A stretch of DNA of 27,287 bases from a virus (IMGVR_UViG_3300010366_000056:1-27287), one strand, 5' to 3'; shown: positions 293-11,795, counted from the first letter of the stretch. Made by a program: numbers and translations. The notes: a model not told the origin generated them from the sequence alone.

Positions 293-3200
293 CTAAGCGG
301 CGACCGACTGCTCGGTCGGTAGCTCAAGTCGTTCAAGGATAATGCTTCCCTTGTCATGTTGGTACTTTCCGTATACAAGTACGACCCTCCCTCTGATGAG
401 TGAGTGTAGGTACTGTCGCCATTCGTTGGGGAAAACCACGATATCGTACTTACCCACCCCGTCATAGGTAACTTCCACGAACGCCATCTTTTCTCCTCTG
501 CGGGTGGAGATTTCCCGAACACCTGTAACCAAGCCACCTATCCAGTAGCTCGAATCAAAAGGTCGGTTCATACTGCTGACATTCGTAGCCGATCTCATCT
601 TCCTATCAAGCTTCACTCGATAGTTGTCCAGAGGATGCACTGAAACGTAAGCACCTAATAGCTCCAACTCCACCTTTGCTCGGTCGGACTCTCCAGGTAT
701 TCCAATACTCTCCAGAGCACCTATCCGTATGAGTTGATCGACGACACGCTTGTTACATCGCCTCCTGTCTACTCCAGTCCAGATTTGCTCCAGACTACTG
801 AACGGTCTTCTTACCATTATCTCCTCGCAGGCTTTGGGGCCTACACCAAGTATAGCAGTCAGACCGTAACGAATCGTCCTGCGGCCTGTTGGTGTGAAAC
901 CTACGTTACTGCGATTGATGTCTGGCGACTTGAACCTGATCTTGAAATAGCGCTTGGCCTCTTCAATCACCACGGGCCGCTCTTTGTTCTCTCGATGGCT
1001 TAGAAGAGCACAGTAAAATATCTGGGGGTAGTAAGTTTTGAGCCAAGCTGTCTGGTAAGCGATCACCGCATAAGCTGTCGAATGCGCTCGGTTGAAGCCA
1101 TAGCCACGATAGTTGAAGATCATTTCCCAGATCTTGTTGGCTACTTCCTGTGTACATCCGTTATTCAGCGCGCCTATACAATGACCACCCTTGTAATCTC
1201 CCCCATCAAAGAATATAGGCTTGAGATCATCCCACACGTCGCCCTTCTTATACTTGATAGCCTCCTTCAGTTCGTCGACGACATGGTGATCCATACCAGC
1301 GATCTGTAGTCCGATCTCCATGACCTGCTCTTGATAGAGCACAACCCCCTTTGGGAGAATGCTGCGTAGTCTTGGATCAGGCAAAGTCCGAACAAGGTGG
1401 GCACTACCCTTGTCCCGACCTTCTTTATAAGGACGAACGAACTGATTCGCGCCGCCTCTTCCAAGAGCCATGACGGCAATAAGATCTTCAAACGATTTGA
1501 GCTGAAGGTCACGTACCACCTGACGCGAGGCTGCCCCTTCGACTTGAAATACACCAGCACAAGCCCCAGAGTTGATGACACGCCAAACCTCAGGATCTTC
1601 ATACTCGGACATCCCTTCAAAGGGATCCTCACCAATGTAGTCGATGCACTCTTGGATGATGTCAAGGGTATCAAGACTGAGGATGTCAAATTTCACCACC
1701 CCTAACTTCTTCAGCGCGTTCATGTCATACTGCGTGACTACAGCTATATTCCCCCTGCCTGCGCCACGCCCTACGGTCATGGTAGGTACGAGCCTTCCAA
1801 GATCGAATGTGTTGTCGCTGATAACAACACCCGCCGCATGCTTGCCTTCGCCGTTTACAAGCTCCTGTATGGTCGTACACCAGTCGTAGAAACCTGCATA
1901 TTGCTCCATAGCCTCAACCACGGTATGCGGTAGGCCAGGTTGCTTGAGTAGTTCTCCTAGCTCGCCACTGGCCTTGAGGTTGACGATGGCCGCGCTATCG
2001 GGGAAACTCTTGCTCGCTCCCATGCACTCCTGTGCCGAGTAGCCCAGGACGCGTAGGATTCTCTGTATCGTACCCCTTGGCCCAAGCCGAGCGAACGTCC
2101 CAACTTGCCTGGCTTGATATGGCGCCTGATTATATCGTTCGATGATGTATTGGACGACCTCGTCACGTCTACTGCGAGCAAAGTCGACATCAAAGTCAGG
2201 TAGCGACGGGCGCGCAGGATTGAGAGCACGCTCAAACATGAGATCGTACCTGATAGGGTCAACATCGACAATGCCCATAAGGTAGGCTGCGAGTACCCCT
2301 GCCATAGAGCCACGACCAGGGCCAACCCGTATGCCGTGATTCCTAGCCCAACGGATATAATCACGGACAATAAGAAATTCCTCTTCAAACTTCGCGCCAA
2401 AGATAATCTTGAGCTCGTACTGTAGCCGATCCCAGTATACCTGTACATCCTGTGCAAGTGTGCCATTCTCATCAAGCTTCCTGAGCCTACGCTCACAAAG
2501 ACTACGCATGTAGTCGGCCGCAGTTACGCTAGTATTCTTGCGGGGAGCTACTGGGATATGCCACACTCTGTTCTCGAACTCGGGTATGCTGATGTCTACC
2601 TTGCCTACCAGATCACTGATAGCAGTCTGGCTGTAGCGCCACGTTGTAGTGTCCCACAACGCCTTGACTTCTTGCCACGTCTTCAGGTGATACCCATAGC
2701 CACTGAAGTGGAAGCGGTCTGTGTCCCGCCACTTTGCCCCTGTCTGCATCGCCAGCCAGATATCGTGTATATCATGCTGCTCTGCGTCCACATAGTGACT
2801 ATCGTTCGTTATGACATGCGGTATGCCGTACTTCTCGGACCAGCGTATGAGCCTTGAATTCACTTGATCCAAGGTCTGCCCATACTCGATATCGCCAGGG
2901 TTGTTCCGCCGCAGGTCATGTCGCTGTAGCTCGAGATACAGATTTGGGAATAGCTCCCTCAGATATAGCAGTTGCTCTCGGGCCTGCCCATACTTCTTGG
3001 CTAGTATCAGGCTCGGTACATGCCCGTTGAGACATGTGGTTGTGATAGCAATGCTAGCTCTGTCCCGCCTGCTCAGTTTCTCTAGTACGTCATAGTCTAC
3101 CCTCGGCCTGTAGTAGAAATACTCGGGGCTGTTTGCGATACTACTGAGCTCGCACAGCACTTCGTATCCACGCTTGTTCAGGGCTAACATCAACAGATGG

Positions 3201-3481
3201 TAAGTGCGCGGCCCTTCTTTCTTGCCAGTTTCGACATTGAGTGTGCGGGTTCTGTCTGCATGATCCTCACACAGATAGAACTCCTGACCAATGATTGGTT
3301 TGACATCCTCCTTACGGCATGCCGCGTAGAACTCAGGTGCGCCGCTCAGTCTACCATGATCAGTTAGAGCTAGAGCTGCCTGCCTGTTCTGCGCTGCCTT
3401 ATGCACTAGATCCTCGATGGGCGCAAGCCCATCCAGAATGCTGTATTCGCTATGCACGTGGAGATGCGCAAATCTGTTCAT
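293..3481 (-). CDS. dnaE: DNA polymerase III alpha subunit (DnaE-type family C polymerase)
   Basis: PHP motifs HLHVHSEYSILDG, TDHG, GQEFY, TNDSHY; GPGRGS; catalytic PDFDVDF and KFDIL; YQEQVM; YGFNRAHS; C-terminal OB fold (GEKMAFVEV). Confidence 0.97.
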   Translation of the reverse strand: MNRFAHLHVHSEYSILDGLAPIEDLVHKAAQNRQAALALTDHGRLSGAPEFYAACRKEDVKPIIGQEFYLCEDHADRTRTLNVETGKKEGPRTYHLLMLALNKRGYEVLCELSSIANSPEYFYYRPRVDYDVLEKLSRRDRASIAITTTCLNGHVPSLILAKKYGQAREQLLYLRELFPNLYLELQRHDLRRNNPGDIEYGQTLDQVNSRLIRWSEKYGIPHVITNDSHYVDAEQHDIHDIWLAMQTGAKWRDTDRFHFSGYGYHLKTWQEVKALWDTTTWRYSQTAISDLVGKVDISIPEFENRVWHIPVAPRKNTSVTAADYMRSLCERRLRKLDENGTLAQDVQVYWDRLQYELKIIFGAKFEEEFLIVRDYIRWARNHGIRVGPGRGSMAGVLAAYLMGIVDVDPIRYDLMFERALNPARPSLPDFDVDFARSRRDEVVQYIIERYNQAPYQARQVGTFARLGPRGTIQRILRVLGYSAQECMGASKSFPDSAAIVNLKASGELGELLKQPGLPHTVVEAMEQYAGFYDWCTTIQELVNGEGKHAAGVVISDNTFDLGRLVPTMTVGRGAGRGNIAVVTQYDMNALKKLGVVKFDILSLDTLDIIQECIDYIGEDPFEGMSEYEDPEVWRVINSGACAGVFQVEGAASRQVVRDLQLKSFEDLIAVMALGRGGANQFVRPYKEGRDKGSAHLVRTLPDPRLRSILPKGVVLYQEQVMEIGLQIAGMDHHVVDELKEAIKYKKGDVWDDLKPIFFDGGDYKGGHCIGALNNGCTQEVANKIWEMIFNYRGYGFNRAHSTAYAVIAYQTAWLKTYYPQIFYCALLSHRENKERPVVIEEAKRYFKIRFKSPDINRSNVGFTPTGRRTIRYGLTAILGVGPKACEEIMVRRPFSSLEQIWTGVDRRRCNKRVVDQLIRIGALESIGIPGESDRAKVELELLGAYVSVHPLDNYRVKLDRKMRSATNVSSMNRPFDSSYWIGGLVTGVREISTRRGEKMAFVEVTYDGVGKYDIVVFPNEWRQYLHSLIRGRVVLVYGKYQHDKGSIILERLELPTEQSVAA

Positions 3482-3537: not shown

Positions 3538-4038
3538 TTAGCATCCGCCTACGGACCATTCACTCCTGGAGCCAGGATATTTGAGTAGCATGAATCCCAT
3601 CACCCGCCGCACATCTGCCAGCGAATGGAGACTCAAGGGTCCCGTGTAGCCCGTTGCCGCGCGATACAATGCGACGTGTCTCGCCCAGGTTCCTTGAAAG
3701 TATTGGCCTGGACCATTTGCTCCACTGCCTCTACGGTTAGGGATATCCAACCCACCGCTCTCTTTTGAGATAATACAGTCAACCCGCGCCATCGGCCCCA
3801 CGATTGAGGGAATTGGTGGCGGAGGCGGAGCTAGCACACCAGTCACAATCAGGTATTGTCGCGGCGACAACCCTGTTGTAAATGATGCACCCTGCAAATC
3901 AATGGGATCAACCTCCACTTCTTGTGCTAGTTGGATCACTTCGTCACTGACAGCAGGCGCATCCGTGTCGTCCGCAGCATACGCGACACTCTGGGTAAGT
4001 GCCGAAGCTATCAGTGCGAAACTGGCGAATAGTCTCAA
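3538..4038 (-). CDS. Secreted lysozyme-like/Rpf-type lytic transglycosylase
   Basis: Signal peptide MRLFASFALIASALTQSVAYA; proline-rich linker; CIISKESGG (catalytic Glu) then SGANGPGQYFQGTW and terminal W..GC; RBS AAGGAGG before the TTG start. Confidence 0.75.
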   Translation of the reverse strand: MRLFASFALIASALTQSVAYAADDTDAPAVSDEVIQLAQEVEVDPIDLQGASFTTGLSPRQYLIVTGVLAPPPPPIPSIVGPMARVDCIISKESGGLDIPNRRGSGANGPGQYFQGTWARHVALYRAATGYTGPLSLHSLADVRRVMGFMLLKYPGSRSEWSVGGC

Positions 4039-4082: not shown

Positions 4083-4326
4083 CTACGATCACCCTGTTTG
4101 CGTACCGAAGAATCTTGCGTAACTGGTCCTCGGACACAAGGTAATCGCCGAAGTAGGTTAGCTGGATAACGGTAAACTCGGGCATGCCGTCCGAATACGC
4201 GAGATCGCACCACGCTTCACTATTCTCGACCCTGGTCTTCATGTAGATATTGCCAGGGTTGATAATATCAAATAAGCGCTGGTTGGATTCTGCTGAAGGC
4301 GTTGAAGTTTCTGGTTCTTCCGCCAC
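4072..4326 (-). CDS. Hypothetical protein (start uncertain; alternative ATG at 4242)
   Basis: Fills the gap between flanking co-oriented genes; no recognisable motif. Confidence 0.55.
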   Translation of the reverse strand: MAEEPETSTPSAESNQRLFDIINPGNIYMKTRVENSEAWCDLAYSDGMPEFTVIQLTYFGDYLVSEDQLRKILRYANRVIVDRK

Positions 4327-5209
4327 CTCTTACAACACTCCCATCTGGTCTTTGTCCTGTACGCATCCGCATATATTTGCTGAACTCGCACAGGCAATTC
4401 TCAATATCACTTGCCACAATAGTCTTATTCTGCCAGTATGGGAATGCCAAATCATACTGCTGGAAGTAGCTCTGCTGACTATCTGCAAGGCTGTGTATGG
4501 CTAGATGATACGATTTGACACCACGGATACCTGGGTACAGCCATTTTAGCCCATTGATACAGCCAGGACCAGCTTCAGCAAAGCTGTTGCGGTCTAGCCG
4601 TGGGTCATAATATGCCCAATCCACGGCTACCTGGAAGCCTAGAAAGCGTCCAAACCCATCTACGCCTAGGAATACGTGATAGGCTCGCTCAAAGTCTGGA
4701 GCGTTGTTCAGACGCACAACAATCTCGGGCACCTTCTTCTGGAGCAGCTCCATCAAGAAGCACACGTTGCTCACCTTATCGGTGTAGTTGCCAAACTTGA
4801 CGCCCGTTACCGTGAATGCACCCGTGAACGGTTGATTGCCTGTTTCGTTCACCCAATACTTGATATAACCTGCCTGATCTCGATGGTCCCAGGGGGTGCG
4901 CCACTCGAGATATGGCTTACCATCACGCAGAAAGTCAAACGTGGGTATGGCGTTGAAGTAGCGGTAGACCAGTATGTTCCACAGCGCATCCTCGGGTGTA
5001 CCGAAGGTAGCCGCAGCCTCCAGCACCCCGATGATGTATTGTGTTCCACGGTCTAGCTCCCGATACACGTTGCAGAAGTGGTGGTTTGCCAGCCACTGAT
5101 CCTGCGTCCAAGGCGGGAGATCTTGCCTCTCGAAGCGCCTGTGGTAGACCATCTGGCGCTCGTACACGAACTGCCAGAATAGCCTCATGTTGTCAGGGTT
5201 TTCTGTCAT
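4268..5209 (-). CDS. 5-hydroxymethyluridine DNA kinase-like protein (aGPT-PPlase clade 1 / HMUDK helical domain family)
   Basis: Family signature ER...PPWTQD.WL..HHFCNVYRELDRGT, YRYFN, FTGAF, GFGRFLGFQVAVD, GPGC.NGL, DIENCLCEFSKY.R. Confidence 0.85.
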   Translation of the reverse strand: MTENPDNMRLFWQFVYERQMVYHRRFERQDLPPWTQDQWLANHHFCNVYRELDRGTQYIIGVLEAAATFGTPEDALWNILVYRYFNAIPTFDFLRDGKPYLEWRTPWDHRDQAGYIKYWVNETGNQPFTGAFTVTGVKFGNYTDKVSNVCFLMELLQKKVPEIVVRLNNAPDFERAYHVFLGVDGFGRFLGFQVAVDWAYYDPRLDRNSFAEAGPGCINGLKWLYPGIRGVKSYHLAIHSLADSQQSYFQQYDLAFPYWQNKTIVASDIENCLCEFSKYMRMRTGQRPDGSVVRGGGRTRNFNAFSRIQPALI

Positions 5210-5454
5210 GCGTTGCCAGCCCTCAAATCTTCTCCGTATTTACCAATCTCCCTATGCAACGAACTAATGTATTCCATGTCTGCTTCAGTTGGCTCACGGT
5301 TGTCATCAAGCTCTGTAACCAGAGCCGCTAAGATACTTGCTGCACCACCATAGAATGCCCGACGCATCTCTTGCCTTTGGATGCTCGAAACATTATAGAG
5401 GCCTACCCGCAGTGAAAAATCATCCCACTGTTCGGATATAGACTTACGTTTCAT
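5206..5454 (-). CDS. Small hypothetical phage protein
   Basis: ATGA overlaps on both sides; QRQEMRRAFYGGA helical motif of a type seen in phage hypotheticals. Confidence 0.75.
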   Translation of the reverse strand: MKRKSISEQWDDFSLRVGLYNVSSIQRQEMRRAFYGGAASILAALVTELDDNREPTEADMEYISSLHREIGKYGEDLRAGNA

Positions 5455-6449
5455 ATGAATGCCATGTCACTTGGTTTAGATAGCTCTTCGTTCAGCACGT
5501 CATTGTACACGGAGAACCTGCAATCATAGTAGTTACACTCGTGGGTCTGCACCCTGTTCATTGCCTCAAGATGCTCTTGCCCATACCACAATTCAATGAA
5601 CTTCTTCTCTGTCAAGCTTCCAATACTTATGTCCTCCTCTCGGTCCTGATAGTAGCAGCAAATCCACACGGTACCTAATGCGTCTACCACGGTATGCAGC
5701 GGGTTGAGCCAGCATACACCGTTCTGGTGAGTCTTCTGGGTGCTCCCAAACACTTTACGTGGGTACTTGGCACTTAGCGCGGCCAAATGCTCTGTGAGGC
5801 ATTCCTGTGCGTCTTGCGGCAGCAGGGCAGGGTCGTCCGCATTATGACGCTTTGGCTTGATACTTACGAAGTCTACACCAGTGTCCAGAATCTCAGCTAC
5901 GAGATAGTCAAGCATTGGAATATCGCTGATACCAAGAAGAATCTTGCCACCGACGCTTGCGTTCGATCGCGTGTTATTGCGAGATCGTACGATATCTCTA
6001 AGTGATCCGAGCTGATTGACAGTATATACGCTAACGCGGATGTACCGTACTCCGTTGTAACAGAGAAGACGGCCAATAGTCTCAGGGTTGGTTCCATTGG
6101 TGATCATGCCAAACTGTAGGCCCTGTTCGCGTATTGCGTCCATGAGATCGTCGAACTTGGGATGCAGCGTTGGTTCGCCGCCACCCGAGAACTCGATGCT
6201 CTCTCCGCCCATAACAGCAAACTCTGTTACGAAGCGTTTGAATATCTCCGCATCCAGGCTAACAGGAGTCTTGGCATTCTCCGCATTCGCAACACATCCG
6301 AAACACCTCATATTGCAGAAGTATGTCGGATAGACTATTGCCATCGTAGGCGCTACCATCTTACCCTGGTGTAGCCTGATGGCATCCTTCCTGAAGGCCA
6401 ATGCCTTGTCTCGCAAGCTAACAGGAGCGTAGCTTATATCAGTAGTCAC
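5451..6449 (-). CDS. Radical SAM enzyme with C-terminal SPASM/twitch domain
   Basis: CNMRCFGC (CX3CX2C), SGGGEPTLHP, ITNGT, IRVS, C-terminal CWLNP...G.V.ICC...IGSL...ELW...C....C; start re-called to GTG 6449 (GAGG RBS, overlaps the GT stop). Confidence 0.93.
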   Translation of the reverse strand: MTTDISYAPVSLRDKALAFRKDAIRLHQGKMVAPTMAIVYPTYFCNMRCFGCVANAENAKTPVSLDAEIFKRFVTEFAVMGGESIEFSGGGEPTLHPKFDDLMDAIREQGLQFGMITNGTNPETIGRLLCYNGVRYIRVSVYTVNQLGSLRDIVRSRNNTRSNASVGGKILLGISDIPMLDYLVAEILDTGVDFVSIKPKRHNADDPALLPQDAQECLTEHLAALSAKYPRKVFGSTQKTHQNGVCWLNPLHTVVDALGTVWICCYYQDREEDISIGSLTEKKFIELWYGQEHLEAMNRVQTHECNYYDCRFSVYNDVLNEELSKPSDMAFI

Positions 6450-7920
6450 CAAATGCCTCAACCCAAGCTCTTGCCACACCTGTCATGAATCTGATCCATC
6501 TGACCCCGTCGGCGGGTCCCGTGGGTAGAGCCACTTGTCCGTTAGATACAGCAAGATGCCGAACAATATCACCGACGTCGGAACCAATGGAATCTGTTGT
6601 AGCCAACTCAGCAACGAGTTCCTCTTGTTCTGGGGCCTCTTCTTCAATAGTAGCGGGTTTAGGAGCATACTTGCTCACGTATGGCTTGAGCTCGTACTGT
6701 GTGTACTCATAAATCGGGACTTCGTCTGTGCAGATATTATCATAGAACGTGGCAGGATGCTCTGGATCTTTGATAAGGTCTGCGTCCAGAAACTCAAGCA
6801 CCATGTAGGCCAGTGCTCTTGCGTCGCTATACTCGGACACAAAATCAAGTGCCCGTTGTGCGATACGCGCCCTGGTCTTAGGCTTGCGCATGATCTCGTT
6901 TACGCGCTCCGCAATCCCCTGGGGATCAGACGGTACAGTCCAGGTTATGTCTTGTCCTGCCAGTGGCGACCACGGATGACTGTCAACCTTCTCATGCACA
7001 ATTGATAGGCAGCCGTACACCATTGCCTCAAACATGATACAGCTTGTCTGACCATCGAAACGGTCGCCAATACTGCCAGCAAGATCAATACTAGCCGCGT
7101 GGGTTTGATAAATTCCAGGAATAACATCTGGCAGTTGGCTCCCCCAATACTGGTGCTCTGGGTTGCCGTTACCCTTGGTCTTGTTGACGTGGTTCAGCCC
7201 AATCGCCCTCTTCCACAACCCAGAAGGATCTTGCCGCGCGTTGTGATATTCGATACCACTGTTGTATAAGTCCACGGGTACCTGGATGTCTGGCAGCGCT
7301 GCCAAGAATGAGTAGATCCCCTTCCACTTCTTCCATTGCGGCATCCAGCAGAGCGTGGAGGTCTTGTCGTCCTGGTACAGTCCCGCCTTCCGTACGTCTA
7401 ATGGCGTAGGCAAGAAGACGTAGTTTCCTGGTAGTCTGCTCAGGCTGTCGTACTTCGACTGATAGCACGTAAACAGGTGGAACTTCACTAGGTCGCTCAC
7501 TTGTCGATACCATTGGTAGTACCTATCCCAAAGGTTGTCGTGGATAATAACAACAATCGGCTTGCCTAGTTCAGCGGCGACCTCGTACAGCATCATCCAA
7601 CTCATGTCTCCACCCTTGCCTTTGATGTCATGGGGACACGCTTGAATCATGAGCAGTACGTCGTATTGCCTGAGCAATCTTGAGAAGTTATGAGCGCTAT
7701 CTTTTCGCTTGTAGCTTAGCTGGCGTGCTGGCAGGCGGTAGTAACGGTCGTTGACCATCGTAGGAGTCTCAGGACTTAGGCTGCGTAGCTTGCCGCTAGT
7801 GCTGGCCCAATAATAGTCAAAGGTGCAGCCTGCGGTTCGCAGACCGTATCCAAGACCTTCAACTATCCTGTTGATACCGCCACGCTCGATGACATCAAAA
7901 TCAACGGCTAGGAACTTCAA
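6439..7920 (-). CDS. GT-B glycosyltransferase resembling T4 DNA alpha-glucosyltransferase
   Basis: ERGGINR, YDVLLMIQACP, VVIIHDN, PTPLDV, WMPQWKKWKGIYSF, SGIE and FEAMVYG occur in the same order as T4 Agt motifs recalled from memory (EGCGVTK, CDILIINSVP, VVYQHDH, QPPMDI, WIGRTTTWKGFYQM, EGLE, LELGACG); GGAGG RBS before the TTG start. Confidence 0.85.
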   Translation of the reverse strand: MKFLAVDFDVIERGGINRIVEGLGYGLRTAGCTFDYYWASTSGKLRSLSPETPTMVNDRYYRLPARQLSYKRKDSAHNFSRLLRQYDVLLMIQACPHDIKGKGGDMSWMMLYEVAAELGKPIVVIIHDNLWDRYYQWYRQVSDLVKFHLFTCYQSKYDSLSRLPGNYVFLPTPLDVRKAGLYQDDKTSTLCWMPQWKKWKGIYSFLAALPDIQVPVDLYNSGIEYHNARQDPSGLWKRAIGLNHVNKTKGNGNPEHQYWGSQLPDVIPGIYQTHAASIDLAGSIGDRFDGQTSCIMFEAMVYGCLSIVHEKVDSHPWSPLAGQDITWTVPSDPQGIAERVNEIMRKPKTRARIAQRALDFVSEYSDARALAYMVLEFLDADLIKDPEHPATFYDNICTDEVPIYEYTQYELKPYVSKYAPKPATIEEEAPEQEELVAELATTDSIGSDVGDIVRHLAVSNGQVALPTGPADGVRWIRFMTGVARAWVEAFGDY

Positions 7921-8458
7921 CGCGATCCTCCACCTTCAAAACCTCTGGTACATTATACGGCACGTGAAGTTCATCGGTTATCAAGAAGAGAAGAAAGTTG
8001 GCACACTGTTCCATGTCTACGAATATGCTGGTGCAGAGCGCACGCCACCCATCATAGCCCTGGTCTAGCGGTGCTTGATCGACACCAATAATTCGGCGGC
8101 CTCGTGCATACGCATATCCAACTTCCGTAGCTCCGAAGAGACTGTTGTTTCCGATAAGCGAAACCACCAGATCACAGCGATCAATAAGAAGCAGATCGCG
8201 AGGTACGTAGAATCGTGGGTCTCCGTGGTGCCCGTTGCCATTCCAGTCACTCCTGTCGGGGGCAGGTCGCGGGTGTAGATAAGTGATATGGCTACGCAGA
8301 TCCTCCATCTGCTGCCTGGGTCTACTCCAATCGTCTGGTGTGTTGGGCCAGTTTATCATAATCTGCTGTTTTATCACACGATCAACAGCACCGACAAACT
8401 CAGCACGCCAGGGTACCCGCATACTCCCACAGGTGTAGACTGAAATGGCATGTGGCAT
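7901..8458 (-). CDS. Nucleoside 2-deoxyribosyltransferase-fold protein, DNPH1/Rcl-like nucleotide N-glycosidase
   Basis: SVYTCGSMR, RDLLLIDRCDLVV and SLFGATEVGYAYARGRRII (catalytic Tyr/Asp/Glu); start ATG 8458 in a TGATG overlap. Confidence 0.85.
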   Translation of the reverse strand: MPHAISVYTCGSMRVPWRAEFVGAVDRVIKQQIMINWPNTPDDWSRPRQQMEDLRSHITYLHPRPAPDRSDWNGNGHHGDPRFYVPRDLLLIDRCDLVVSLIGNNSLFGATEVGYAYARGRRIIGVDQAPLDQGYDGWRALCTSIFVDMEQCANFLLFLITDELHVPYNVPEVLKVEDRVEVPSR

Positions 8459-8769
8459 CAGAGGTCTTCCCACTCGAGCCTGTAGCCGACAAGCTCCGTT
8501 TCAACGTTGGTGGAATGTATGAGACTGAGGTGACATCCCGTCGCCACGTACTCATTGGTATCCGCTGTGTTGTGCTCTTTACAGATAGTTATGCGGTTAC
8601 CTGGGTCTGGAGTGCTCTCATACATCAGAGTCTTGCCGCGCTTGGTCCTGACAGACAACCCCAATGATACCAGTACCAGATCTGCACGCCCTTGACAGAT
8701 AGCGCAGCTGAACCCAGGCTCTTCATACACAAGCTCTGGGCCAAACATCTCATCCAGGTTTGGCATCAT
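8458..8769 (-). CDS. Hypothetical protein with CxxC...CxxH possible zinc site
   Basis: CAIC and CKEH; overlaps both neighbours in operon fashion; start 8769 or 8766. Confidence 0.65.
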   Translation of the reverse strand: MMPNLDEMFGPELVYEEPGFSCAICQGRADLVLVSLGLSVRTKRGKTLMYESTPDPGNRITICKEHNTADTNEYVATGCHLSLIHSTNVETELVGYRLEWEDL

Positions 8770-9253
8770 GCCACCGATCAATGGTGTACGGCGCTGGACT
8801 TTCTGTTACCTCATTTACCACCAGCCCGTTAGGCGGACGATCATCATCATCGTCCTGAAAGTTGAGTCCCTCCCATGCTAGGATCATGAAAGCGCGTACG
8901 ATTAGATCAAACAATACGCCTCGGCGTTTGTCTGGATCCCAATTCAACGCCGCCCCGTTGCGCCATGCACCTGATAAGCGTGCCAGCTTATCGATCATGT
9001 CCGCAGTTGGGATAATCTCACCTAGTGTCTGCCAACTACTATCGTACTGGTAGTTCTTCTGGGCCACCAGTGCATCGAAACGCCTCAACGCTGCCGCGAA
9101 CTCTGGGTTTATCTCACGCATCAGCGTTTCGTAATCGCCAGGGGTGAGAGACTGCCCTGGGCCGTAGCCCAGGACATGCTCTGCAAATTGGTTGATCAAC
9201 CAGCCCTGCTGGATCTCAACCCGCCTAGTTTCGACGGTCTCGCTCGGCTCCAC
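8750..9253 (-). CDS. Nucleotide modification-associated domain 1 (Nmad1/DUF1599; all-alpha NTP-pyrophosphatase-like) protein
   Basis: KNYQYDSSW..LG......DKLARL and L.DL...A.M pattern. Confidence 0.7.
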   Translation of the reverse strand: MEPSETVETRRVEIQQGWLINQFAEHVLGYGPGQSLTPGDYETLMREINPEFAAALRRFDALVAQKNYQYDSSWQTLGEIIPTADMIDKLARLSGAWRNGAALNWDPDKRRGVLFDLIVRAFMILAWEGLNFQDDDDDRPPNGLVVNEVTESPAPYTIDRWHDAKPG

Positions 9254-10328
9254 TCTCTACGGCCTCCACAATCTCCTGGTTGATACGGTGGTGGCGCGGC
9301 ATCAAGCGGTGGCACTCACGACAGATGAGGTGGTGCTCCACAATATGTCCCGCCGCCGCTTGCAACCGACGTGCCAGGAACGGGTCTTCGACCACCCTTG
9401 CGAAATTGCTGGCAACGTAAGTCACGTGCGCCCACAGACCATACATATTCGGGGCTGGTTGATTGATAAGCCTGCGGGCAATCATCCCGCGCACGCGCAC
9501 GGGGATACCGTACTGGCTGAAGGTACTCTCGAGCGTTTCAGCCGTATGGTCGCTCAGTTGAATGTCTTGCAGGCTTCGGATACGGTCGAACTCGAAAGCA
9601 CCCGCACCGTAGACCTGCCCCACCTTCTCACGAATCCACTCGTCACGGTCGCCCTTGGCTTCCTTGCGGGTGAAGTTCATGACGTTCTGGGTACTGACAG
9701 CACCGTTGGTGCAGACCAGCTGATGCGTGAACCCACCAATCTCCAGCGGTACAGCCGTGCTTGGCAGGTCAATACCAAGTGGCGTGAACGTTGCTGTCAC
9801 ACCATAGTTGATCACATCGCCAACCTTGCGGCCAGCTTTGTTCTCAACCTTGCCCATCTCCTGGTTCTGCCCACCCACGAGAGTGATGTACTGCCTGTCC
9901 CAGCCTCCGCCAACCTGATAGCCAAGGGCTTCCTTGCGGCCACCAAGCCCACGCTCCATAAGATTGAGCATGTGGACAGGGTCCATCACCTGCGCGGCGG
10001 CAGGCGTGAATGCGATAAGCTCACCTTCGCGAACCACTGCCTTGAGCTCCTGCTCGTGGCGGCGCAGGGCTTCATCCAGGATTGGTGCGACCAGGACTTT
10101 GGGGTACTTATCCAGCCCCGCGCCCTTGAGGCCACCAATCTTGTAGATGTAGTCCCACGCATCATTGCTCATTGGCAGTACGTCGCCACGCTTGCCGAAC
10201 TGGTAGCTGGCATCACCATTATCACCCAGGCGAATGCCGTAGCTAGAAGTAGGTGCGAAGACGCGCTCCTCAAGGCCACGGTATGGGCGCAGCGTTGCGA
10301 GCGCTTGATCTCTAGTCTGTAGCTGCAT
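9225..10328 (-). CDS. DUF932-like phage protein
   Basis: QLVCTNGA motif and C-terminal NMYGLWAHVTY..S helix; AGGAG RBS. Confidence 0.7.
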   Translation of the reverse strand: MQLQTRDQALATLRPYRGLEERVFAPTSSYGIRLGDNGDASYQFGKRGDVLPMSNDAWDYIYKIGGLKGAGLDKYPKVLVAPILDEALRRHEQELKAVVREGELIAFTPAAAQVMDPVHMLNLMERGLGGRKEALGYQVGGGWDRQYITLVGGQNQEMGKVENKAGRKVGDVINYGVTATFTPLGIDLPSTAVPLEIGGFTHQLVCTNGAVSTQNVMNFTRKEAKGDRDEWIREKVGQVYGAGAFEFDRIRSLQDIQLSDHTAETLESTFSQYGIPVRVRGMIARRLINQPAPNMYGLWAHVTYVASNFARVVEDPFLARRLQAAAGHIVEHHLICRECHRLMPRHHRINQEIVEAVESGAERDRRN

Positions 10329-10515: not shown

Positions 10516-10697
10516 TAGAGCTCCTTCACCTCGCTTATACCTTCACGCAACTCTTGCGGGGTGACCACTCTATCCATTGCGATGGCTGCATTGCAGGCAG
10601 TACAGCGGAGCACAAGCTGACCCTTCCAAGCCACAATATTCGTGGCATGGCAGATAGGGCACACCAGCCTGGCTCCATCCATCAATTGACCACTCAT
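10515..10697 (-). CDS. Small zinc-ribbon protein
   Basis: CPIC...CTAC; ATGA and TAGTG coupling to neighbours. Confidence 0.65.
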   Translation of the reverse strand: MSGQLMDGARLVCPICHATNIVAWKGQLVLRCTACNAAIAMDRVVTPQELREGISEVKEL

Positions 10698-11686
10698 CGT
10701 CGTGTACGTGCTACAGGCTTGGCGACTGTTGCTCGGGACCTGGCTGTGGGGAGAGGCTTGCGCTGGACACGACGAGCGGGACGGACTGGCTCCTCGTCAT
10801 CTTCCTCTTCATCCTCTTCATCTTCTTCTTCGTCGTCGGCTTCTTCGTCATCCTCAACTTCCTCGTCCTCGTCGTCATCACGAGCTACGGGCTTACGAGC
10901 ACCACGCTTGGGAGCAGGAGCCTCCTCCTCTTCCTCTTCGTCCTCCTCATCTTCATCTTCTTCGTCTTCGTCGTCCAGGTCTTCGACCTCCTCGTCCTCA
11001 TCCTCATCATCTTCGAGGCGGGAAGTCTTGGGCTTGGCCCGAACGTTGGCACCGTAGTAGTTCTCGACCTCGCTGGCGAGCTCTTCATCTGCACTCAGCT
11101 TGACGAACTTACTGAGGGCACGAATGCGGCCATCGATCTCCAGCTTGCCAATCTCCTCACCATCGATCTCGTACTTGGTATCCACGTCGCTGCCAATGCG
11201 CACGATGGTCCAGTTGCGATTCATGAGGGTTGGCTCGCGGTCACCAGCCTTGCCACGGCTGCGCTCGTACTTGATGATGAAGCTGTCGACCATGCCCTTG
11301 GTCATGTACAGCAGGCGGACCTCGCCAGTGCCTACGTCCACCACATTCGCGAGCCATCGTGTCGCAGCACGGGCTGCGGGATTGCCATCCAACTGGCACC
11401 CTTTGTGACACGGTACTCTGCTCCAGAAACCGCCGCTGCGTTGAATACCGTGCTCGTAGAACTTGGTCCAGGCTTGACCAGGCTCACCAAACGGCTCATC
11501 CAGAAAGCGCACCGTAACGCTCTCTTTGTCACGCAAGCGGATAACCTTGCTGGGAGTGCGCGCAGCATCACGCTTCAACTGGTCGAGCGTGCCAGCCGTG
11601 CTGCTGTTGACCTGGATCTTCTCTGGGCGCGTCCCGTTAGTACCGTTGCGCGATACACTCTTAGGCTTGAGCCTACCTTCTGCCAT
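10694..11686 (-). CDS. Single-stranded DNA-binding protein (T4 gp32-like) with a long acidic/basic disordered tail
   Basis: VRFL, YEH..., C...C, W.ANVVD, I.R.G...DTKY pattern; located next to primase and helicase; start re-called to ATG 11686 (GAGGAGG RBS). Confidence 0.8.
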   Translation of the reverse strand: MAEGRLKPKSVSRNGTNGTRPEKIQVNSSTAGTLDQLKRDAARTPSKVIRLRDKESVTVRFLDEPFGEPGQAWTKFYEHGIQRSGGFWSRVPCHKGCQLDGNPAARAATRWLANVVDVGTGEVRLLYMTKGMVDSFIIKYERSRGKAGDREPTLMNRNWTIVRIGSDVDTKYEIDGEEIGKLEIDGRIRALSKFVKLSADEELASEVENYYGANVRAKPKTSRLEDDEDEDEEVEDLDDEDEEDEDEEDEEEEEEAPAPKRGARKPVARDDDEDEEVEDDEEADDEEEDEEDEEEDDEEPVRPARRVQRKPLPTARSRATVAKPVARTRR

Positions 11687-11795
11687 ACGTGCCCTCCTCA
11701 TGGCACCAAATGTGTGTGAAACAGGTTGGTCGTCGGATGCGCTGTTGTAAGCCGTCTTTTAGCCCTCCTGCCTGGATTGGTTTTGGCATGCCAAC

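Follow-up and report, generated by a model that had tools for sequence, protein, structure and literature searches.

The closest described counterparts of the gene cassette considered here are the thymidine hypermodification pathways of the phages M6, ViI, PaMx11, PhiW-14, SP10, and SH-Ab 15599 (PMC8989533, PMC5889632, PMC13458397). These pathways include a dUMP hydroxymethylase and an aGPT-Pplase1 protein, substitute the C5 methylene of the base after replication, and cluster with a polymerase gene. In the literature considered, the worked-out phage thymidine hypermodifications that derive from 5-hydroxymethyldeoxyuridine (5hmdU) consist of a kinase step and amino acid transfer. The cassette that we describe is carried by IMGVR_UViG_3300010366_000056, a 27,287-base virus record on one contig (hereafter ‘the window’, meaning this whole stretch). 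It shares, or is predicted to share, the features above with the M6/ViI/SP10 group but lacks the P-loop 5-hmdU DNA kinase (5-HMUDK), the amino acid:DNA transferase (AADT, or Pplase2), and the pyridoxal phosphate enzyme of that group, and has instead a GT-B glycosyltransferase (GT) and a Twitch-type radical S-adenosylmethionine (SAM) enzyme. We consider it probable that the cassette directs direct glycosylation of 5-hydroxymethyluracil (5hmU) in DNA, giving a base J-like product with a radical-tailored, probably epimerized sugar.

Other systems share parts of this predicted chemistry. The T-even glucosyl-5-hydroxymethylcytosine (5hmC) system (T4 gp42, Agt, and Bgt) is similar in that the predicted reaction of the cassette's GT-B enzyme is transfer of a sugar to a 5-hydroxymethylpyrimidine in DNA. 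Sugar-tailoring partners, in the form of epimerases, are known for TET-linked phage GTs (bioRxiv 10.1101/2023.12.21.572611); that preprint makes no mention of radical or radical SAM chemistry. The cassette differs from both in its predicted 5hmU acceptor, in having no sequence match to T4 Agt or Bgt, and in its radical SAM tailoring. Base J of kinetoplastids (beta-glucosyl-5hmU; PMC13229309) belongs to the predicted product class, O-glycosyl-hydroxymethyluracil, but the cassette would depend on a nucleotide-level hydroxymethylase rather than JBP and on a GT-B rather than the GT-A JGT, and its sugar is likely altered. The radical SAM enzyme resembles DesII, BlsE, BtrN, and NeoN/HygY in its best PDB matches, its Twitch-type cysteine set, and an extra cysteine that is a possible hydrogen donor (PMC10991966 for NeoN); identity to these enzymes is ~20–30%, below curated cut-offs, and the context is phage DNA rather than antibiotic biosynthesis. 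HTVC023P-type pelagiphages (PMC9599517) carry, by computational prediction, a thymidylate synthase-type hydroxymethylase, aG/PT-PPlase1, and a GT near a polymerase, but their GT is of the GT-A (TAGT) type and, in the available text, no radical SAM enzyme is mentioned and the chemistry is not determined.

By family membership, judged from sequence, the cassette falls outside both the kinase/AADT pathways and the Agt family. By analogy, it is predicted to combine glycosylation of the T-even kind with the 5hmU precursor found in the M6/SP10 group. We found no published characterization of glycosyl-5hmU or of a sugar radical SAM enzyme in phage DNA in a search that subscription journals largely fell outside. 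Iyer et al. 2013 (NAR 41:7635) reportedly defined aGPT-Pplase, Nmad1, and TAGT. The gene combination may already figure in that study or in the supplements of PMC8989533 or the GT preprint.

A conserved gene block next to a phage DnaE gene

Baseplate and tail genes occupy one end of the window. At the other are helicase, DnaB, primase, DnaE, and the beginning of recA, inside which this fragment stops. The gene block belongs to the replication arm; it is encoded on the minus strand, more than 10 kb from the tail genes, in the order orf167, orf107, NDT-like gene, GT, radical SAM gene, orf82, and PF18723 gene, with DnaE downstream:

8750 to 9253, minus strand: orf167, DUF1599 (Nmad1)-like helical protein, predicted dNTP-pool clean-up (Atlas features, synteny)
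8458 to 8781, minus strand: orf107, filler open reading frame (ORF) (no family match, place not conserved)
7901 to 8458, minus strand: NDT-like / DNPH1-type N-glycosidase, predicted dNMP (likely dTMP) hydrolase (PF15891, Y13/S111/E117)
6439 to 7920, minus strand: GT-B glycosyltransferase, predicted DNA 5hmU glycosyltransferase, TTG start (AlphaFold model, Atlas)
5451 to 6449, minus strand: radical SAM enzyme, 332 aa, predicted sugar epimerase or dehydrogenase (PF04055, PF13186, cysteine set)
5206 to 5454, minus strand: orf82, filler ORF (no family match; homolog elsewhere in G001)
4268 to 5209, minus strand: aGPT-Pplase1 (PF18723 HMUDK_hel), predicted accessory on 5hmU DNA (PF18723, E 4e-57)
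293 to 3481, minus strand: phage DnaE-type polymerase (PF07733, E 1e-62; PF02811; PF17657)

The initial annotation had described five nucleotide- and DNA-chemistry genes in one chain of overlapping frames between SSB and DnaE. The chain is as described: overlapping frames run from orf367 through the PF18723 gene, all on the minus strand, with TGATG at the orf107/NDT-like junction, overlaps of 20 bases between the NDT-like gene and GT and 11 bases between GT and the radical SAM gene, and ATGA at both the radical SAM/orf82 and orf82/PF18723 junctions. Likely starts are ATG 8458 (NDT-like), TTG 7920 (GT), and GTG 6449 (radical SAM). DnaE lies downstream, as placed; the proposed SSB has no Pfam or PHROG match, and three further ORFs stand between it and the block.

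We observed the complete order orf167, NDT-like, GT, radical SAM, PF18723, DnaE in five of seven IMG/VR loci (33–62% identity). In the two incomplete loci, L005 and L006, the contig runs out within the block; L003, L004, and L006 are near copies of one another. Both orf167 (43–53% identity) and DnaE (63%) are syntenic in six of the seven, while neither orf107 nor orf82 has a counterpart at its place in any of them (L001–L007). A closer metagenome contig, L078 (71–84% identity), retains GT, radical SAM, PF18723, and DnaE. The gene block is thus real and conserved, and more than a chance arrangement. G001 (98% complete) and G002 (100%, with terminal repeats) are near-complete relatives of ~90 kb and 55–63% identity.

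Enzymes of the predicted pathway

A hydroxymethylating enzyme had been placed outside the window, and each near-complete relative indeed encodes a single thymidylate synthase homolog (PF00303), 11–12 kb downstream of the block and on its strand; three fragmentary relatives included in the search end before this point. Among phage proteins, the homolog best matches the dUMP hydroxymethylases SP10 gp188 and SPO1 gp29 and their kin (phmmer E 7e-38 to SPO1 gp29 versus 4e-4 to T4 gp42). At the positions of N177 and L143 it carries Asn and Asp, respectively, and D169 is retained, residues tied to a dUMP substrate and a hydroxymethyl product (PMC13326640). Based on the Asn177 and Asp143 equivalents, we predict that the G001 and G002 enzymes make 5-hydroxymethyl-dUMP (hmdUMP) from dUMP, so the dUMP hydroxymethylase of an M6/ViI-type pathway appears to be present in both. 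Because an Asn-type synthase implies a dUMP substrate and a hydroxymethyl product, the hydroxymethylpyrimidine first proposed narrows to 5hmU as the likely base, by extension from its relatives in the case of the window's own phage.

The GT ORF encodes 493 residues, a ~385-residue core followed by a low-confidence acidic tail, and its AlphaFold model (pLDDT 78) has two Rossmann-like domains. The GT-B assignment draws on the Atlas and on the secondary structure of this model. Atlas structure matches reached TM 0.72–0.83 to GT-B clusters, including AGT at 0.78 over 363 residues (a comparison with predicted models on both sides), and feature matches fell in the clusters of T4 BGT and AGT; generic GT4 clusters score near AGT (TM 0.72–0.76). 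Among the relatives are 27 close homologs, several of them annotated as glycosyltransferases, and 238 sequences at the 50% level, and 20 of 60 scanned relatives carry GT1/GT4-type Pfam matches. Residues G14, G15, D128, K200, and E298 are kept in 112–116 of 118 sequences. At the sequence level the ORF has no Pfam match, no phmmer match with T4 Agt, and, as a single sequence, no match in the PDB, where its profile finds one weak GT1 match (E 0.003); the Agt family PF11440 matches neither the ORF nor any of the 60 relatives scanned. The ‘Agt-like’ label of the initial annotation therefore holds for the fold and fails for the sequence: as judged from model and sequence, the resemblance is one of fold and not of family membership. 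A search of 50,697 cultured phage records (E 0.1) and a pattern scan of GTDB genomes gave no match to the GT, so the family comes with neither a cultured model nor a host assignment. Gene context suggests a DNA acceptor, and we predict that the protein is a DNA 5hmU glycosyltransferase.

The radical SAM label is well founded (PF04055, E 6e-15; PF13186, E 1e-6). Starting at GTG 6449, the 332-residue protein is the same as the called gene P0030. It contains an invariant CxxxCxxC motif (C45, C49, C52) together with a C-terminal cluster-binding set, C246, C264, C305, and C310, found in 65 of 65 sequences, and an extra C265 in 59 of 65, features that identify it as a radical SAM enzyme of the SPASM/Twitch type. 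By count, four or five C-terminal cysteines fit one auxiliary cluster, as in Twitch domains, and not the two of a full SPASM domain. In the PDB, a profile of the 65 sequences matched DesII (E 1e-18), BlsE (E 2e-15), and MoaA (E 3e-12), and a profile of the C-terminal part gave weak matches to BtrN (E 0.001) and then anSME (E 0.003). No NCBIfam cut-off was reached (DesII TIGR04426, 30.2 bits against a cut-off of 450), which leaves the protein outside the DesII family, and there was no match to M6 gp53. Fusion to a cytidylyltransferase occurs in six of 91 homologs.

A sugar is the likely substrate of this enzyme, and we predict from sequence comparison that it is a sugar epimerase or dehydrogenase. 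At the position of C265, the dehydrogenase BtrN has Cys-Phe where the window enzyme has Cys-Cys. We take NeoN C249 and HygY C183 to occupy the same position, and a single cysteine is said, in the title of the HygY paper, to separate epimerase from dehydrogenase. Cys249 of NeoN is the hydrogen donor in epimerization (PMC10991966). An epimerase is our preferred guess. Besides its Fe-S radical SAM enzyme, G001 encodes a low-affinity iron permease (PF04120, E 2e-43; L015:13223-13627), for which no match is listed in G002.

The PF18723 gene was first read as a 5hmU-DNA kinase. Its ORF matches PF18723 over profile positions 4–276 of 281. In a comparison of 25 reference queries with 2,836 six-frame segments from the window, G001, and G002, it matched M6 gp55 (E 3.5e-9) and residues 302–602 of SP10 gp186 (E 1e-17), the non-kinase half of that protein, and matched neither M6 gp54 nor SP10 gp186 residues 1–290. 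Full-length PF18723 and these homologies mark it as an aGPT-Pplase1. Characterized 5hmdU DNA kinases are P-loop proteins (PMC8989533, Table 1), whereas aG/PT-PPlase1 is a separate class with a helix-hairpin-helix (HhH) fold, fused to the kinase in SP10 gp186 (PMC5889632, Table 3). In that table, M6 gp51 and gp55 are interchanged compared with the later paper; PF18724 hits M6 gp51. The modeled window protein (pLDDT 85) is all-helical, and its structural matches are QNG1 (Z 10.7) and the AADT PaMx11 gp46 (Z 10.6, root mean square deviation 4.6, 221 aligned), then HhH glycosylases, Z values that are moderate for helical proteins. The Pplase1 profile found no match among PDB sequences. We rejected a kinase identity on the lack of a Walker A motif, the lack of any match to gp54 or gp186 1–290, and the all-helical HhH model; judged by sequence and model, the protein is an HhH-fold paralog of AADTs. 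The full Pfam name of PF18723, ‘5-hmdU DNA kinase, helical domain’ (HMUDK_hel), steers annotators into labeling a non-kinase as a kinase.

The kinase and AADT of an M6/ViI-type pathway are missing from both near-complete relatives. The kinase family PF18748 is absent from G001 and G002 (positive controls M6 and locus L085 were detected), and the only Walker A motifs common to the two are those of RecA and two helicases, with no small P-loop gene in common. The AADT family PF18724 is absent from the window, G001, and G002 (M6 control, E 2e-48), consistent with the lack of a visible AADT reported at the outset. The phospho-sugar product suggested at the same time falls with the kinase reading.

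Viral gene neighborhoods and alternative readings

We surveyed gene neighborhoods with an alignment scan for Pplase1, which found 205 loci where a single-sequence scan found none. The best 80 were used, eight of this clade and 72 others; each reaches at most 8 kb to either side, and they are redundant, forming 27 clusters at 70% Pplase1 identity. Some GT is present in 30 of the 72 (28 found by local profiles and two by a Pfam search confined to 16 loci), a kinase in 10, and both in one. Counted by cluster, 10 have a GT, eight a kinase, two both, and 11 neither in view. An Asn-type synthase occurs in all 28 GT loci that have a synthase in view, and the kinase-free arrangement of hydroxymethylase, Pplase1, and GT is common. 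Six of the 72 unrelated loci place a member of the window's own GT family (E 6e-13 to 4e-19) between Pplase1 and a hydroxymethylase of the Asn type. One virus, L085, encodes a GT of 30% identity followed by a methyltransferase, a PIG-L deacetylase-like protein, an LMWPc phosphatase-like protein, a PF18748 kinase, Pplase1, an Asn-type synthase, and PolA. Together these neighborhoods suggest a tie between the GT family and DNA. The L085 locus (L085:9626-16571) is itself a candidate for a phospho-sugar, or a deacetylated and methylated sugar, on 5hmU; L111 also has LMWPc, beside two kinases.

A second radical SAM family recurs in the same survey. These BtrN-like Twitch proteins (E 2e-29), which also have Cys-Cys, occur in six of the 72 Pplase1 loci, all with a GT, and in five of the 27 clusters, all among the 10 GT clusters (hypergeometric 252/80730 = 0.003, calculated by hand and indicative, as five of these loci supplied the family profile). 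A 709-residue protein, P0211, joins the window GT family (residues 1–346) to this BtrN-like family (E 5e-91) in what looks like a natural fusion. In L105:2923-8837 and L109:5088-8861, a portal gene comes immediately after Pplase1, GT, and a BtrN-like radical SAM gene. In L105 there are also a weak AADT match (PF18724) and a kinase-like gene, a possible hybrid amino acid/sugar pathway.

For the window's own radical SAM family, we found 55 viral loci and annotated 22 distant ones, 18 of which have a GT nearby. The neighbors of these distant kin support a sugar substrate and also feed a virion-glycan alternative considered below. L031:3910-9892 contains a radical SAM gene, a phosphoribosyltransferase, a nicotinamide phosphoribosyltransferase, a member of the window radical SAM family, and a GT-B in one run, such that NAD-salvage genes adjoin the sugar-radical pair.

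The context of the GT family, the sugar kinship of the radical SAM enzyme, and the synthase in the relatives all support a sugar-modified, radical-tailored hydroxymethylpyrimidine, as originally proposed. In the pathway that we envisage, the thymidylate synthase homolog, encoded in G001 and G002 and assigned its activity from diagnostic residues, would convert dUMP to hmdUMP. Host kinases would raise hmdUMP to hmdUTP for incorporation by the phage DnaE, while the NDT-like and DUF1599-like proteins might drain dTMP and dTTP. By analogy with T4 Agt/Bgt and base J, the GT would then move a hexose from a host nucleoside diphosphate (NDP)-sugar onto the 5-hydroxymethyl oxygen; phosphorylation of the base would not be needed because the NDP-sugar donor is already activated. 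Acting on either the NDP-sugar or the DNA-bound sugar, the radical SAM enzyme would abstract a sugar C-H hydrogen, and Cys265 would return hydrogen to the other face, as in epimerases of the NeoN/HygY type. Pplase1 may be a general companion of hydroxymethylpyrimidine DNA that probably binds and flips the base. Protection from host nucleases is the likely purpose.

A more specific version, in which the base is kinase-free and base J-like and the Twitch enzyme epimerizes the sugar on DNA, disguising the glycan from host nucleases or glycosylases that target glucosylated bases, is a tentative possibility. If true, a radical SAM sugar epimerase that acts on DNA would be a first, and antibiotic-type sugar chemistry would have supplied Twitch enzymes on at least two occasions, once with fusion to the transferase.

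Several observations weigh against direct glycosylation with radical tailoring. The hydroxymethylase is seen only in relatives: the window ends in recA, 5.6–7 kb short of the expected position, and three closer contigs (L078–L080) also stop before it. No gene for NDP-sugar synthesis, dCMP deaminase, or dUTPase was recognized in G001 or G002. L085 and L105 join a GT with a P-loop kinase, so the kinase and GT routes are not exclusive. Margins in the radical SAM comparisons are thin, both for DesII over MoaA and for BtrN over anSME, and P0211 is a single sequence. Among 25 distant radical SAM loci scanned, a synthase or Pplase1 occurs only in L046, whose synthase has the Asp of the dCMP type, so the family has no fixed link to uracil. 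In eight of the 22 annotated loci, the radical SAM gene has a capsid, portal, or tail-tube gene beside it. Finally, T4 Bgt glucosylates duplex 5hmU only when it is mispaired with G (PMC4111573).

The strongest alternative, which we regard as unlikely, keeps GT glycosylation of 5hmU but has the radical SAM enzyme act off the sugar (on the base, the linkage, or a cofactor), or has Pplase1 join a sugar-derived nucleophile to C5 via an exocyclic methylene in the manner of an AADT. Consistent with such a role, Pplase1 shares its fold with PaMx11 gp46 and has an E270-x-x-L-C274 motif, invariant in 11 of 11 sequences, that aligns with M6 gp51 E243-T-V-L-C247 (an alignment by motif); PaMx11 gp46 carries the same residue numbers, E243/C247 (PMC11472151). 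In addition, M6 gp53 is a radical SAM enzyme that rearranges a base substituent in DNA (PMC8989533). However, AADT chemistry requires a phosphate leaving group (PMC8989533), M6 gp55 is dispensable for the glycine-transfer product of M6, no kinase is present, and the window radical SAM enzyme does not match gp53. The 11 of 27 clusters that show Pplase1 with neither GT nor kinase also fit an accessory role.

It is improbable that the GT and radical SAM enzyme build a virion or host-surface glycan, lie in the replication module by chance, and leave the DNA with plain 5hmU. The radical SAM family is common in viral glycan clusters (L030–L062: GT2, GT8, GT9, methyltransferases, sulfotransferase) among capsid, portal, and tail-tube genes, possibly specifying radical-tailored virion glycans, and the similar scores of generic GT4 clusters and AGT would suit such a function. 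Clustering with capsid glycosylation enzymes, which the initial annotation had named as evidence against it, is thus true of distant radical SAM kin but of neither this clade nor the GT family. Here the pair is coupled by overlaps between nucleotide-pool genes and Pplase1–DnaE, far from the tail genes; unrelated viruses again have the GT family next to hydroxymethylase and Pplase1; and the GT is single, with no further glycan genes recognized in G001 or G002.

Phosphorylation of the base by a 5hmU-DNA kinase, with the GT forming a phospho-sugar adduct, would find parallels in the phosphate-bearing sugar thymidines of SP-15, YerA41, and Carin-5 (PMC12686479) and in L085, which combines the GT family with a PF18748 kinase (27.3 bits against a cut-off of 27) and has no AADT in a 72% complete record, but is very improbable given that the PF18723 ORF is not a kinase and that G001 and G002 have neither PF18748 nor a common small P-loop gene. 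We give hardly any credence to a 5hmC acceptor as in T4, which would account for the AGT/BGT look-alikes in the Atlas and for the Asp-type synthase of L046, because G001 and G002 have one synthase homolog each, of the Asn type, and no TET/JBP match was found among 82 G001 ORFs scanned. L046:1228-6893 encodes, besides its Asp-type synthase, Pplase1, a TAGT, the window radical SAM family, two unassigned 315-residue ORFs, and ribonucleotide reductase, and shows Pplase1 accompanying 5hmC systems as well.

Glycosylating 5hmU directly, for which trypanosome base J is the precedent to date, and tailoring the sugar by radical chemistry would amount to a second route of thymidine hypermodification in phages. 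The cassette is compact (about four genes plus the hydroxymethylase) and recurs in unrelated viruses. It could yield a glycosyltransferase specific for 5hmU:A, of use in 5hmU mapping, and offers a clean setting for finding the role of aGPT-Pplase1.

Accessory and neighboring genes

The NDT-like label given initially holds at the Pfam level (PF15891, E 7e-7, at the cut-off; PF05014, E 0.002, below it). Profile matches were weak (YtoQ, E 0.007; an NDT, E 0.007; Rcl/DNPH1, E 0.04), and Y13, S111, and E117, invariant in five of five sequences, align to Rcl/DNPH1, yet other NDT-fold proteins score as well. DNPH1 acts on hmdUMP. Since hydrolysis of hmdUMP would harm a 5hmU phage, our guess from these sequence matches is that the window protein removes dTMP.

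The ‘Nmad1’ label for orf167, Nmad1 being DUF1599, is no more than a lead. An Atlas feature score of 0.92 links the protein to a cluster with DUF1599 in 20% of its members, structure rows all have TM <0.35, and no Pfam family (PF07659 included) matches the ORF or any of four relatives at E 0.1. Its invariant residues are K66, N67, Y70, D85, D88, K89, R92, and D116. Assuming the MazG-like pyrophosphatase role predicted for DUF1599, orf167 is predicted to be a dTTP/dUTP pyrophosphatase-like dNTP clean-up enzyme. The NDT-like and orf167 proteins might stand in for dCMP deaminase, HD nucleotidase, and dUTPase, none of which was recognized in G001 or G002.

Neither orf107 nor orf82 has a Pfam, PHROG, or NCBIfam match; a homolog of orf82 (43%) occurs elsewhere in G001, at 36135-36428. 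We set aside orf367 (9225-10328, minus strand) as a cassette member, as it is conserved but has no family match to nucleotide chemistry. It is 42% identical to its relatives and 90% identical between G001 and G002, has no Pfam match, and carries a C-terminal LVCTNG motif reminiscent of DUF932. Between primase and orf367, a 335-residue ORF (10694-11701, minus strand) with a very long Asp/Glu tract is SSB-like by position and composition and has no Pfam or PHROG match. Between Pplase1 and DnaE, a variable slot (3538-4038 in the window, minus strand) holds an ORF of 120–180 residues with a signal-peptide-like start, differing in each relative.

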